Below, one piece after another: positions 36,230 to 63,545 of a stretch of DNA of 64,000 nucleotides. This DNA is from Escherichia phage EC128. Position 1 is the first letter of the stretch; each line of letters begins with the position of its first letter. The notes beneath the pieces were generated by a model. It saw nothing but the letters and a program-made list of their open reading frames with translations. It was not told where the DNA came from and did not search any database. The stretch lies in sequence record ON210139.1; one strand, written 5' to 3'. The translations under genes and the position numbers were made by a program.

Positions 36230-36302
36230 TGGGAATTAGCCAAGTTGGTAAGGCACTGGATTTTGATTCCAGGATGCAAAGGTTCGAGTCCTTTATTCCC
36301 AG
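36230..36302 (+). tRNA. tRNA-Gln (anticodon UUG)
   Basis: Cloverleaf with acceptor TGGGAAT/ATTCCCA, anticodon loop TTTTGAT, T-arm GGTTCGAGTCC. Confidence 0.85.
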
Positions 36303-36303
36303 C

Positions 36304-36390
36304 GCGAGAATGGTCAAATTGGTAAAGGCACAGCACTTAAAATGCTGCGGAATGATTTCCTTGTGGGTTCGAGTCCCACTTCTCGCACCA
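36304..36390 (+). tRNA. tRNA-Leu (anticodon UAA), type II with long variable arm, CCA encoded
   Basis: Acceptor GCGAGAA/TTCTCGC, anticodon loop CTTAAAA, long variable arm, T-arm GGTTCGAGTCC. Confidence 0.85.
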
Positions 36391-36395
36391 AATTT

Positions 36396-36469
<74 letters not shown>

Positions 36470-36479
36470 ATTTAATTTA

Positions 36480-36553
36480 CTCCGTGTAGCTCAGTTTGGT
36501 AGAGCGTCTGCTTTGGGAGCAGAATGTCGTAGGTTCAAATCCTGCCACGGAGA
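36480..36553 (+). tRNA. tRNA-Pro (anticodon UGG)
   Basis: Acceptor CTCCGTG/CACGGAG, D-arm TAGCTCAGTTTGGTAGAGC, anticodon loop TTTGGGA. Confidence 0.85.
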
Positions 36554-36555
36554 CT

Positions 36556-36642
36556 GGAGGCGTGGCAGAGTGGTTTAATGCACCGGTCTTGAAAACCGGC
36601 AGTCGCTCCGGCGACTCATAGGTTCAAATCCTATCGCCTCCG
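36556..36642 (+). tRNA. tRNA-Ser (anticodon UGA), type II
   Basis: Acceptor GGAGGCG/CGCCTCC, anticodon loop CTTGAAA, long variable arm. Confidence 0.85.
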
Positions 36643-36644
36643 TT

Positions 36645-36720
36645 GCTGATTTAGCTCAGTAGGTAGAGCAACTCACTTGTAATGAGAAGGTCGGCGGTTC
36701 GATTCCGTCAATCAGCACCA
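36645..36720 (+). tRNA. tRNA-Thr (anticodon UGU), CCA encoded
   Basis: Acceptor GCTGATT/AATCAGC, anticodon loop CTTGTAA, T-arm GGTTCGATTCC. Confidence 0.85.
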
Positions 36721-36721
36721 A

Positions 36722-36793
36722 GGCCCTGTAGCTGGAAGGTTCAAGCAAGCGACTCATAATCGCCAGATGGTGGTTCAATTCCACCCAGGGCCA
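36722..36793 (+). tRNA. tRNA-Ile (anticodon CAU, presumably lysidine-modified as in T4)
   Basis: Acceptor GGCCCTG/CAGGGCC, anticodon loop CTCATAA; T4 encodes a CAU-anticodon tRNA-Ile (established knowledge). Confidence 0.75.
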
Positions 36794-36834
36794 TATTTTG
36801 GGAACATAAATACTCTTAGAAATAGGAGATATTT

Positions 36835-37500
36835 ATGTTCCATTACACTTATAAAATAACAAATAAAATTAATAATAAAATTTATATTGGTGTGCATTCT
36901 ACCGAAAATTTAGATGATGGATATATGGGTTCTGGTAAATTATTAAAAAGAGCCCAAGATAAATATGGTATAGAAAATTTTTCTAAAGAAATATTAGAGT
37001 ATTTTGATGATAAAGAATCTATGCTTGAAGCCGAGAAAAATATTGTCACAGAAGAGTTTTTAAATAGACCAGATGTGTATAATTTAAAACTTGGCGGTGA
37101 AGGTGGATGGGACCATATAAATATTCCTGGGATGCTAAACCAGAAGAAAGACGCTAGTTTAAAAGGAGCTAAATCGTTTAAGTCACGTTTTAAAAATGAT
37201 ATTTTACTTCAAGAAAAATATCGTAAACATGGTTCAAATGTATTTAAACGCTTGTGGTCAACTCCTGAATACAGGGAAAAATTTTTAAATAATAGCAGAT
37301 TTTTAAATAAGCATCATACTCCTGAAACTATTAATAAAATGAAAGAATCTCACGCCAGAAATAAACACCAACAGGGCGAAAAGAATTCCCAATTTGGTAT
37401 GATGTGGATTCATTCATTAGATGAAAAAGTTTCTAAACGTATTAAGAAAACTGACCCAATTCCAGAAGGATGGTTTAAAGGTCGAAAAATGAAATTTTAA
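36835..37500 (+). CDS. segB: GIY-YIG homing endonuclease SegB inside the tRNA cluster
   Basis: 221 aa ORF with GIY-YIG motif YTYKITNKINNKIYIGVHS; located between the tRNA subclusters as in T4. Confidence 0.85.
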   Translation: MFHYTYKITNKINNKIYIGVHSTENLDDGYMGSGKLLKRAQDKYGIENFSKEILEYFDDKESMLEAEKNIVTEEFLNRPDVYNLKLGGEGGWDHINIPGMLNQKKDASLKGAKSFKSRFKNDILLQEKYRKHGSNVFKRLWSTPEYREKFLNNSRFLNKHHTPETINKMKESHARNKHQQGEKNSQFGMMWIHSLDEKVSKRIKKTDPIPEGWFKGRKMKF

Positions 37501-37503
37501 TTA

Positions 37504-37580
<77 letters not shown>

Positions 37581-42276: not shown

Positions 42277-42807
<531 letters not shown>

Positions 42808-42811
42808 AGTT

Positions 42812-42843
42812 GTTTACTTTCTCCTAGAATTGTGATAGTATAT
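42812..42843 (+). promoter_or_regulatory. Early promoter for denV
   Basis: -35 GTTTAC, -10 TAGTAT with upstream TG, in the 59-nt gap between e and denV. Confidence 0.55.
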
Positions 42844-42866
42844 TCACAGTTACTTGGAGGGATAAA

Positions 42867-43283
42867 ATGACTCGTATTAATTTGACTTTAGTATCTGAAC
42901 TTGCTGATCAACATTTAATCGCAGAATACCGTGAATTGCCGCGTGTTTTTGGTATAGTTCGTAAGCATGTGGCAAACGGTAAGCGCGTTAAAGATTTTAA
43001 AATATCTTCTAAATTTATTTTAGGTTCTGGTCATGTTACTTTCTTTTACGATAAGTTAGAATTTTTGCGAAAGCGTCAATCGGACATTATAACGGAATGC
43101 TTAAAACGCGGGTTCAGTATAAAAGATACTGAAGTTCCTGACATCAGCGATATTCCAGTAGAATGGAAAAATGATTATAATCCATGCAAATCAGCTATTA
43201 AGTTGAGTCAACAACGACTCGATGAAAAAATTTTAATGAAGCCACACTGGTATAAGTATTACGGCAAAAATATTTACATTTAA
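42867..43283 (+). CDS. denV: Endonuclease V (pyrimidine dimer DNA glycosylase)
   Basis: 138 aa [20 protein letters not shown]...; recognised as T4 endonuclease V. Confidence 0.95.
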
Positions 43284-43380: not shown

Positions 43381-43968
43381 ATGGACAATTCATGCGCCAT
43401 GGAATGGCCCAAACCTAGAGATAACAAAATGAGAACATTTTTAACTGGTCCTTATCTATCCCTGATGAATGCTTTTACACACCATTCTGATGCTAGAGTA
43501 GAAGAAATTTGTAAAAACGAATATATCCCGCCATTTGAAGACTTACTTAAACAGTATTGCACACTTCGACTAGACGGTGGACGTCAATCTGGTAAATCAA
43601 TTGCTGTGACTAACTTTGCTGCTAATTGGTTGTATGATGGCGGAACAGTTATTGTTCTTTCTAATACTTCAGCTTACGCTAAAATTTCTGCAAATAACAT
43701 TAAAAAGGAATTTTCGCGTTATTCTAATGATGATATACGTTTTCGTTTATTTACTGATTCTGTACGCAGTTTTATTGGTAATAAAGGAAGCAAGTTCAGA
43801 GGTTTATCGCTTTCGCGAATTTTGTATATAATTGATGAGCCTGTCAAATCTCCTGATATGGATAAGATTTATAGTGTCCATATTGACACTGTACACTGCT
43901 GCTGTAATATTAAATGTTGTATTGGTGGTATTACTCGTCCACAGTTTTTCGTAATCGGAATGCAATGA
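43381..43968 (+). CDS. P-loop NTPase-like protein with C-terminal cysteine cluster
   Basis: Walker A GGRQSGKS and Walker B-like LYIIDE; C-terminal HCCCNIKCC; real start may be the internal Met at 43429. Confidence 0.5.
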   Translation: MDNSCAMEWPKPRDNKMRTFLTGPYLSLMNAFTHHSDARVEEICKNEYIPPFEDLLKQYCTLRLDGGRQSGKSIAVTNFAANWLYDGGTVIVLSNTSAYAKISANNIKKEFSRYSNDDIRFRLFTDSVRSFIGNKGSKFRGLSLSRILYIIDEPVKSPDMDKIYSVHIDTVHCCCNIKCCIGGITRPQFFVIGMQ

Positions 43969-44294
43969 TGACAGACACTCAGCTTTTCGAATATCTTTAT
44001 TTTTCGCCAAAAACTATTAAAAATAAATTGGTGAATCATTTTGAAATTTTGGCAAATAACAACGTCTTGAGCGAATTTTATCCTAAGCAATACAAATTAC
44101 AAAAAGGCGTATTCAAAGGATGTAGAGTTTTATGTACTGCTCCTAATGCACGGCTAATGAATAAAATTCCATATTTTACCATGGAATTTATTGATGGGCC
44201 TTTTAAAGGACTAATCACACAGAGTTTAATGGCATATGATTCTGAGCCATTTTTAATTAAAGAACAATCTTGGATAAATTTATTTTCTAATTGA
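43965..44294 (+). CDS. Hypothetical protein
   Basis: ORF whose ATG overlaps the upstream stop (ATGATGA); track start 43914. Confidence 0.45.
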
Positions 44295-44301
44295 GGTTTA
44301 T

Positions 44302-44664
44302 ATGAAAGCATATCAAATTCTTGAAGGCACACATAAAGGTACTATTTATTTTGAAGATGGTATTCAAGCACGAATTATCGTTTCTAAAACCTTTAAAGAG
44401 GACTCTTTTGTAGACCCAGAAATTTTCTATGGTTTGCATGCCCGTGAAATTGAAATTGAGCAACAGCCTACAGTTAAAATTGAAGGTGGTCAACACCTGA
44501 ACGTTAACGTTCTGCGTCGTGAAACTCTGGAAGATGCAGTTAAGCATCCGGAAAAATATCCGCAGCTGACCATCCGTGTATCCGGTTATGCAGTTCGCTT
44601 TAACTCTCTGACTCCGGAACAGCAGCGCGACGTTATCGCTCGTACCTTTACCGAGAGTTTGTAA
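44302..44664 (+). CDS. Autonomous glycyl-radical cofactor (GrcA/YfiD-like)
   Basis: C-terminus [29 protein letters not shown] matches the glycyl-radical signature of GrcA and pyruvate formate-lyase C-termini. Confidence 0.85.
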
Positions 44665-44885
44665 TGGCAAAGATAATTATTGAAGGTTCTGAAGATGTGC
44701 TAAATGCTTTCGCCGAATGGTTTAGTAATTCAGGCGAACAGCAATTTAACGAAGCATGGAACATGGGTGATATTAATGGAATTTATCCTACTACAGAAAT
44801 TTCTGTTCAGGGATATGGCATTCATGAACCTATTCGTTTAGTTGAATACGATTTATGTACTGGTGAGGAAGTCAAATATGATTGA
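44664..44885 (+). CDS. Hypothetical protein
   Basis: 73 aa ORF with start/stop overlap with neighbours. Confidence 0.5.
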   Translation: MAKIIIEGSEDVLNAFAEWFSNSGEQQFNEAWNMGDINGIYPTTEISVQGYGIHEPIRLVEYDLCTGEEVKYD

Positions 44886-45144
44886 AGATATTAAAGGTTA
44901 TAAGCCACATACTAACGAAAAAATCGGTAAAGTAAATGCTATTAAAGACGCTGAAGTTCGTTTAGGACTTATCTTTGACGCTTTATACGATGAATTCTGG
45001 GAAGCACTAGATAATTGCGAAGACTACGAATTCGCAAAGAATTATGCTGAAAGCCTCGATCAGCTAACTATTGCTAAAACGAAACTCAAAGAAGCTAGTA
45101 TGTGGGCTTGTCGCGCGGTATTCCAACCAGAGGAAAAATATTAA
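44878..45144 (+). CDS. vs.4-like small protein (candidate Acb2 cyclic-oligonucleotide sponge)
   Basis: Fifth ORF counting from denV toward regB, the vs.4 slot in T4; about 88 aa from the ATG after a GAGGAA RBS; assignment by position and size only. Confidence 0.45.
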
Positions 45145-45422
45145 TGGCTCAATTAAGCGCAGGGTTTGGTTATGAGTATTATACTGCCCCTCGTCGTGTA
45201 TCTGTTGCTCCTAAGAAAATTCAAAGTCTTGATGATTTCCAGGAAGTAATTCGTAACGCTTTCCAGGACTATGCGCGTTATCTTAAAGAAGATTCACAGG
45301 ACTGTCTCGAAGAAGATGAAATTGCTTATTATGAGCAGCGTCTTGAACAGCTTAAAAACCTACATGAGGTTCGTGCAGAAGTTACAAAGTCTATGAATAA
45401 ATTGATTAGATTTAAAGAATAA
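45144..45422 (+). CDS. Hypothetical protein (vs.3 position)
   Basis: 92 aa from [13 protein letters not shown]; track ORF starts upstream at 45102. Confidence 0.5.
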
Positions 45423-62333: not shown

Positions 62334-62807
62334 ATGTTATTGACTGGCAAATTATATAAAAAAGAAAAACAGAAATTTTATGATGCACAAAATGGTAAAT
62401 GCTTAATTTGCCAACGAGAACTAAATCCTGACGTTCAAGCTAATCACCTCGACCATGACCATGAATTAAATGGACCAAAAGCAGGAAAGGTACGTGGATT
62501 GCTTTGTAATCTATGCAATGCCGCAGAAGGTCAAATGAAGCATAAATTTAATCGTTCTGGCTTAAAGGGACAGGGTGTTGATTATCTTGAATGGTTAGAA
62601 AATTTACTTACTTACTTAAAATCCGATTACACCCAAAATAATATTCACCCTAACTTCGTTGGAGATAAATCAAAGGAATTTTCTCGTTTAGGAAAAGAGG
62701 AAATGATGGCTGAGATGCTTCAAAGAGGATTTGAATATAATGAATCTGACACCAAAACACAATTAATAGCTTCATTTAAGAAGCAGCTTAGAAAGAGTTT
62801 AAAATGA
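62334..62807 (+). CDS. 49: Endonuclease VII (Holliday junction resolvase)
   Basis: 157 aa ORF with zinc site CLIC...CNLC and HNH-like NHLDHDHELNG; recognised as T4 gp49. Confidence 0.93.
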   Translation: MLLTGKLYKKEKQKFYDAQNGKCLICQRELNPDVQANHLDHDHELNGPKAGKVRGLLCNLCNAAEGQMKHKFNRSGLKGQGVDYLEWLENLLTYLKSDYTQNNIHPNFVGDKSKEFSRLGKEEMMAEMLQRGFEYNESDTKTQLIASFKKQLRKSLK

Positions 62808-63341
62808 CAATTGAAAAAGAAATTGAAGGATTGATTCATAAAACTAATAAAGACCTTTTGAACGAGAATGCTAATAAAGATTCTCGTGTTTTTCCAACTC
62901 AACGGGACCTTATGGCTGGTATTGTGTCTAAACACATTGCCAAAAATATGGTCCCGTCTTTTATTATGAAAGCGCATGAAAGCGGAATTATCCATTTCCA
63001 TGATATTGATTATTCCCCTGCTCTTCCATTTACTAATTGCTGTTTAGTAGATTTAAAAGGAATGCTTGAGAACGGATTTAAGCTCGGTAATGCACAGATT
63101 GAAACTCCTAAATCAATTGGCGTTGCTACTGCAATTATGGCACAAATTACTGCACAGGTTGCTTCCCATCAATATGGCGGAACGACTTTTGCGAATGTAG
63201 ATAAAGTACTTTCTCCTTATGTTAAACGCACCTATGCAAAACATATTGAAGATGCAGAAAAATGGCAAATCGCCGATGCGTTGAATTATGCTCAATCTAA
63301 AACAGAAAAAGACGTATACGATGCATTCCAAGCTTATGAGT
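62804..63341 (+). CDS. nrdD: Anaerobic ribonucleoside-triphosphate reductase NrdD, exon 1 (interrupted by a group I intron)
   Basis: Frame open from MTIEKEIEGL to 63349; proposed 5' splice site after U63341, where exon UAUGAGU can pair with intron GCUCAUG (P1 with terminal U-G). Confidence 0.75.
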
Positions 63342-63545
63342 TAACGTAAGTCAAGCTCATGTAAAATCTGCCTAAAACGGGAAACTCTCACTGAGACAAT
63401 CCGTTGCTAAATCAGCGGTAGCTGTAAATGCCCAACGACTATCCCTGATGAATGTAAGGGAGTAGGGTCAAGCGACCCGAAACGGCAGACAACTCTTAGA
63501 GTTGAAGATATAGTCTGAACTGCATGGCGACATGCAGCTGTTTAT

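Follow-up and report, generated by a model that had tools for sequence, protein, structure and literature searches.

The closest described systems are the spare parts of the glycyl-radical enzyme PFL. According to the account of Wagner et al. 2001 (PMID 11444864) given in PMC8683613, two such proteins of approximately 14 kDa are the E. coli protein YfiD and Y06I, the product of the bacteriophage T4 gene vs.6; the same account states that YfiD and Y06I receive their glycyl radical from the PFL activating enzyme, and that either protein, in complex with oxygen-cleaved PFL, restores activity in vitro. Spare parts have been validated for PFL only, YfiD and Y06I being the sole validated ones, and in YfiD residues 61-127 take the fold of PFL residues 693-759, while residues 1-60 are disordered, yet required for binding to cleaved PFL (PMC8683613). 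The radical sites have been named as G102 in GrcA and G734 in PFL (PMC12338860), and vs.6 was among the few ORFs found in all T4-like genomes compared in an earlier survey, where it matched the Gly_radical family (PMC1524935). Identification of the gene is therefore already known, T4 vs.6/Y06I having been recognised in 2001 as a spare part for PFL and carrying the RefSeq annotation "autonomous glycyl radical cofactor GrcA". The present analysis concerns a vs.6-like open reading frame (ORF) in a window, by which we mean the whole 64,000-nucleotide stretch of Escherichia phage EC128 (ON210139.1) that was analysed, and its modest lead beyond the known gene identity is a DNA mosaic within the gene that appears to track the host.

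The window belongs to a T4-like myovirus genome (Tequatrovirus) and is oriented opposite to the T4 GenBank record. The features of the locus are as follows.

Positions 42313-42807 of the window: gene e (lysozyme).
Positions 42867-43283 of the window: denV.
Positions 44293-44296, plus strand: Shine-Dalgarno sequence GAGG, 5 nt before the vs.6 ATG, read from the sequence.
Positions 44302-44664 including the TAA stop, plus strand: coding sequence of the GrcA-like vs.6/Y06I orthologue, with an ATG start and 120 amino acids.
Positions 44584-44586, plus strand: GGT codon of Gly95, the predicted radical glycine, which aligns with GrcA G102 and PFL G734.

After denV the gene order is vs.8, vs.7, the 44302-44664 ORF, vs.5/vs.4/vs.3, and regB. 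The Shine-Dalgarno GAGG of vs.6 overlaps the TGA stop of vs.7 (44292-44294), and the vs.6 stop shares bases with the ATG of the downstream ORF (44664-44885) in a TAATG overlap; this packing suggests that vs.8-vs.7-vs.6-vs.5 are translated as a polycistronic unit and that vs.6 is co-transcribed with vs.8 and vs.7. The product is a standalone small protein, encoded with its own Shine-Dalgarno sequence and stop and unrelated small phage ORFs on both sides. Scanning found no MotA-box middle promoter or TATAAATA late promoter directly upstream of vs.6, the only late promoters of the region lying before gene e (at 42279 and 42292), and sigma-70-like and terminator-like sites near vs.6 were no commoner than in shuffled sequence. 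A TTG-start ORF of 127 amino acids on the minus strand (44287-44670), antisense to the whole of vs.6, was set aside as most likely a shadow, having no family or homology support while all family matches fell on the plus strand.

Two further observations concern the surroundings of the gene. In the window, e is directly followed by denV (42313-43283) and internal-protein genes are absent at the locus; T4, by contrast, has ipIII and ipII between e and denV, and in phage slur14 denV is flanked by internal-protein genes. A cluster of eight tRNA genes at 36230-37580 (Gln, Leu, Gly, Pro, Ser, Thr, Met/Ile-type CAU, and Arg; ARAGORN and Rfam) resembles the tRNA region of T4.

The initial annotation had read a glycyl-radical signature at the C-terminus of this ORF and had proposed a GrcA-like autonomous cofactor, and both readings were confirmed; it had not identified the ORF with the characterised T4 gene. 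The product matches Pfam PF01228 Gly_radical with an E-value of 2.5e-18 (67 bits against a cut-off of 22.2 bits), and NCBIfam TIGR04365 (autonomous glycyl radical cofactor GrcA) matches residues 20-120 with an E-value of 1.2e-45. The TIGR04365 score of 154.9 bits falls below the 170-bit equivalog cut-off owing to the divergence of the N-terminal half, and RefSeq gives the name GrcA to T4 vs.6 and many of its orthologues despite the sub-cut-off score of the window protein. Among known structures, E. coli GrcA (PDB 6owr) matched at 9e-42 and the C-terminus of PFL (1h16, residues 697-759) at 5e-26, with 49 of 63 residues identical. By BLASTP, residues 60-120 are identical to E. coli GrcA 67-127 at all 61 positions, and identity falls to a weak but still alignable level of approximately 38% over residues 22-59; in the alignment to GrcA/YfiD the radical glycine is kept (Gly95 for G102), and the domain has the PFL-type RVSGY motif. 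Judged by these scores, the Pfam, NCBIfam, and PDB family signal is far above chance. A single-sequence AlphaFold2 model was uninformative (mean pLDDT 34.8).

Comparison with T4 points to the same gene. T4 vs.6 (T4p117, NP_049730.1; reference NC_000866) has the same length and shares 118 of 120 residues with the window protein, which also matches PHROG 1209 along residues 1-120 (E-value 5.7e-63); on sequence grounds the ORF is the T4 vs.6 (Y06I) orthologue and a member of PHROG 1209. The gene is widespread. A megablast search of 43900-45200 returned 797 phage records, 489 of them with a query coverage of 80% or more; the best hits stood at 97-98% identity, and most label the vs.6 coding sequence "autonomous glycyl radical cofactor". 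A tblastn search with the protein reached 1588 phage records, of which 1538 align over 80% or more of its length; the records span Straboviridae genera, T5-like Demerecviridae, and Aeromonas and Vibrio phages, and several Tequatrovirus phages encode a protein 100% identical to the window product. All of the 14 phage vs.6 alleles that we translated were intact save that of Klebsiella phage KPV15 (NC_055715.1; 221-583). There a frameshift interrupts the 5' half of the homologue, and the GrcA annotation covers the final 51 codons only; either the sequence is in error, or the allele is a truncated one that retains the radical domain alone. In the T5-like phage AKFV33 (2501-2869) and the T4-like Aeromonas phage 31 (992-1360), the homologue lies in or beside the phage tRNA cluster, not in a denV-regB string.

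At the DNA level the window gene is composed of dissimilar segments, listed here by position.

Positions 44302-44479, plus strand: phage-like 5' half (GC 0.33 and GC3 0.20, as elsewhere in the phage).
Positions 44480-44651, plus strand: putatively host-derived block encoding the structured radical domain (EGGQHLN...RTFT), 172 nt and 100% identical to E. coli grcA.
Positions 44652-44664, plus strand: last four codons and stop, ACC GAG AGT TTG TAA against ACT GAA AGC CTG TAA in E. coli grcA, the differences being synonymous.

The 5' half has approximately 45% DNA identity and approximately 38% protein identity to E. coli grcA, and 88-89% DNA identity to the alleles of Mosigvirus. Local GC climbs from approximately 0.30 to 0.47-0.50 on entering the block (GC 0.50 and GC3 0.45 across 44480-44651), with the left junction at the EGGQHLN codons, where nucleotide homology begins and which lie near the point where GrcA passes from its disordered into its structured part. 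The 3' 185 nt of vs.6 match grcA in all 5426 of 5426 complete E. coli genomes at 95-99% identity, the best listed being 97.8%. The synonymous differences in the last four codons recur in every phage allele examined, and this segment bounds the host-identical block on its right; it may simply be a recombination junction, or it may serve as the ribosome-binding region of the downstream gene. Between the window and Mosigvirus, DNA identity is 72-76% in flanking genes, 88-89% in the 5' half as given above, and 96-100% in the block; with identity in the block so far above that in the flanks, the block is much younger than the split between Tequatrovirus and Mosigvirus.

A second block of the same kind is found in Klebsiella phages. 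In Jiaodavirus, vs.6 has a phage-type 5' half (GC3 0.20) and a block with a GC3 of 0.55 of which 167 of 173 nt are those of K. pneumoniae grcA (96-97%), unlike the E. coli type of the window, and phages with this Klebsiella-type block have just 86-87% identity to E. coli grcA. The difference extends to the protein: the Jiaodavirus block and K. pneumoniae GrcA read LLDAVEH, whereas E. coli phages and E. coli GrcA read LEDAVKH. Among phage records, 80 were matched by the K. pneumoniae grcA block at 95-99% identity; the 40 best listed were all at 96-97%, and by name 39 of them are phages of Klebsiella. Four carriers of the Klebsiella-type block were checked taxonomically (KPV15, KP179, PSE-D1, and LF82-7 aside), and all were Jiaodavirus. 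PSE-D1 (Jiaodavirus) is labelled a Salmonella phage. At the 22 diagnostic sites of the block that separate E. coli from K. pneumoniae grcA, the phage alleles were distributed as follows.

Tequatrovirus and Mosigvirus: 21-22 of 22 sites in the E. coli state.
KPV15 (Jiaodavirus): 19 of 22 sites in the K. pneumoniae state.
PSE-D1 (Jiaodavirus): 17 of 22 sites in the K. pneumoniae state.
KP179 (Jiaodavirus): 14 of 22 sites in the K. pneumoniae state.
Slopekvirus, Karamvirus, T5-like, and Aeromonas phages: mixed at the 22 sites.

The Slopekvirus, Karamvirus, T5-like, and Aeromonas-phage alleles have 70-84% identity to the grcA of E. coli and K. pneumoniae and are close to neither. Radical-domain DNA of AKFV33 and Aeromonas phage 31 is 72-75% identical to E. 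coli grcA, so that no recent host conversion has taken place there, and the grcA block of Enterobacter sichuanensis had no match among phages at 95% identity or above. By these alignments, host matching is established for E. coli and Klebsiella only.

The bacterial sequences used in this comparison call for some comment. A scan of genome contigs for grcA found at least 80 loci in Enterobacterales, Pasteurellaceae, and Vibrio, with K. pneumoniae not among the matches listed, and the K. pneumoniae grcA came from a PLSDB entry that is labelled a plasmid but is in fact a chromosome. Two PLSDB "plasmids" that carry grcA are actually chromosomal (CP125156.1, K. pneumoniae "plasmid unnamed2", 5.37 Mb; LR134122.1, K. 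aerogenes, 568 kb), and in the second of these grcA is frameshifted, probably through an assembly error. Plasmid unnamed4 of Klebsiella sp. WOUb02, a 275-kb replicon labelled as a plasmid, also carries grcA, and "Vagococcus sp. WN89Y", which bears a Firmicute label, has an enterobacterial-type grcA that suggests contamination or mislabelling.

The simplest reading of the mosaic is that host grcA DNA took the place of the conserved 3' half of an old phage homologue of grcA on at least two occasions, once with Escherichia and once with Klebsiella as the source. Codon usage and the full-length, syntenic grcA of bacteria point to transfer from host to phage, and the E. coli-type block may have passed between Tequatrovirus and Mosigvirus by phage-phage recombination. 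On balance, we lean towards a process in which the grcA of the current host repeatedly overwrites the radical half of vs.6 by recombination, keeping the catalytic plug host-identical for PflA and PflB while the N-terminal half evolves apart. If this is true, vs.6 would be a clean natural case of host-tracking gene conversion in an auxiliary metabolic gene of a strictly lytic phage. The mosaic points to DNA passing from host to phage in T4-like phages, which are strictly lytic, and the host-matched block suggests that selection has favoured a radical domain fitting the host activase and PFL exactly. No description of the vs.6 mosaic was found in the searchable full-text literature, which did not include the original 2001 paper or the 2003 T4 review, and its novelty is accordingly uncertain.

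As to function, the 44302-44664 protein very probably serves host PflB as a working spare part of the GrcA class, made by the phage in a host that has been shut off. That such a protein might rescue the host enzyme had been suggested in the initial annotation, and the suggestion is supported, being in keeping with the published biochemistry of the near-identical T4 Y06I (PMC8683613) and with the RefSeq annotation of T4 vs.6. When a fermenting or micro-oxic enterobacterial host is infected, oxygen would cleave PflB at the Gly734 radical, and the phage protein would bind the cleaved PFL, presumably via its N-terminal half. Host PflA (radical SAM, the PFL-activating enzyme) would then place a radical on the phage Gly95, and the phage C-terminal domain would fit in where the C-terminus of PFL has been lost and hand the radical to Cys419, so that the rescued PFL could again convert pyruvate and CoA to acetyl-CoA and formate. 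The phage would make its own spare part because a T4-infected cell stops host gene expression, leaving no new PflB or GrcA. The gain to the phage would be sustained ATP and acetyl-CoA, plus formate for the formate-dependent phage NrdD; such a benefit in vivo is what we infer from the scheme as a whole, and if PFL repair does sustain these supplies, phage yield may rise in the oxygen-fluctuating gut. A radical domain that is DNA-identical to host grcA fits the need to match host PflA and PflB. The divergent N-terminal half would, by analogy, count against the spare-part reading, in that the corresponding half of YfiD mediates binding to cleaved PFL. T4 can dispense with vs.6 when grown aerobically under standard laboratory conditions, and we know of no in vivo phenotype for the gene, none being found in the searchable literature.

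The enzyme served might be a host enzyme other than PflB. The E. coli tdcE gene matches the block DNA at 78.8%, and the C-terminus of TdcE (2-ketobutyrate formate-lyase) is therefore closely related; several phage records label the vs.6 homologue 2-ketobutyrate formate-lyase, and the possibility that GrcA proteins repair other glycyl-radical enzymes has been raised in print (PMC8683613). Experimental support in that source is for rescue of PflB only, however, and the phage domain is identical to that of GrcA, whose documented partner is PflB, so that we consider service to TdcE or other PFL-type enzymes, whether besides PflB or instead of it, improbable.

That the protein does not repair PFL at all, but acts as a decoy, shutting down host fermentation by titrating PflA or occupying PFL, or is a functionless passenger of host DNA, seems to us highly improbable. 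Half of vs.6 is literally host DNA, as a passenger would be, but T4 Y06I restores PFL in vitro and does not inhibit it, according to the account in PMC8683613. Nor does the distribution of the gene suggest junk, given its wide conservation across Straboviridae and T5-like phages (the 1588 tblastn records, 1538 at 80% coverage or above) and the intact state of the 14 translated alleles save KPV15; the phage-specific N-terminal half is itself conserved, which would be unexpected of junk.

The initial annotation had also placed the gene alongside nrdD and had proposed that its product rescues the phage NrdD. Of the first statement, it holds that nrdD starts in the window, at 62804, but the two genes are not adjacent, nrdD lying 18 kb and approximately 25 ORFs downstream of vs.6. 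Exon 1 of nrdD alone is inside the window, its frame stopping after 181 codons (62804-63349), and a group I intron follows (63306-63537; Rfam RF00028, full model, 98.2 bits), which we take to be the known T4-type nrdD (sunY) intron; the window ends inside the intron. T4 NrdD is likewise cleaved by oxygen at its glycyl radical. A BLASTP comparison with the C-terminal 200 residues of T4 NrdD, which include IRRTCGYLGNPNERGF, found no significant similarity to the vs.6 protein (best E = 27), and the T4 NrdD radical motif is RRTCGYLG, placed after a Zn-ribbon; on these findings we rejected the rescue of NrdD. Although one genome encodes two glycyl-radical proteins and a role in nucleotide metabolism has been speculated from the shared Pfam domain (PMC1524935), a spare radical domain for phage NrdD, activated by NrdG, is the least credible of the readings, since the vs.6 domain matches the PFL C-terminus at 49 of 63 residues and host GrcA at 61 of 61 but finds NrdD only at E = 27, its DNA was apparently copied from host grcA and not from nrdD, the two genes stand 18 kb apart, and validation is restricted to PFL (PMC8683613). 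A link of another kind, through metabolism, can be drawn between the two genes. PFL is the source of formate in the cell. A connection from vs.6 to NrdD by way of PFL-made formate is therefore plausible, formate being the reductant of class III ribonucleotide reductases of the T4 and E. coli type (PMC4493059).

Set beside the known systems, the phage protein shares 49 of 63 residues with the C-terminal domain of PflB (697-759; PDB 1h16/2pfl), the segment that a spare part replaces (PMC8683613), but differs from PflB in being a separate polypeptide without the 690-residue barrel, and at every position where PflB and GrcA vary it is nearer to GrcA. Like E. coli GrcA/YfiD (P68066; PDB 6owr) it is a standalone protein of approximately 14 kDa, although its N-terminal half is 7 residues shorter and has phage codon usage, and whereas grcA adjoins ung in the E. 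coli chromosome, vs.6 lies in an early-region gene string of a lytic phage. Among phages, the Jiaodavirus, Slopekvirus, and T5-like homologues have the same architecture as the window gene, with a conserved phage-type N-terminus beginning MKAYQ. T4 vs.6 agrees with the window gene in position, within the vs.8-vs.7-vs.6-vs.5-vs.4-vs.3-regB string between denV and regB, and differs from it at residues 54 and 72 (P54 and H72 in T4, Q54 and R72 in the window), where the window residue 72 is in the E. coli GrcA state, unlike that of T4. T4 vs.6 is also a mosaic, with an exact run of 138 nt against E. coli grcA.
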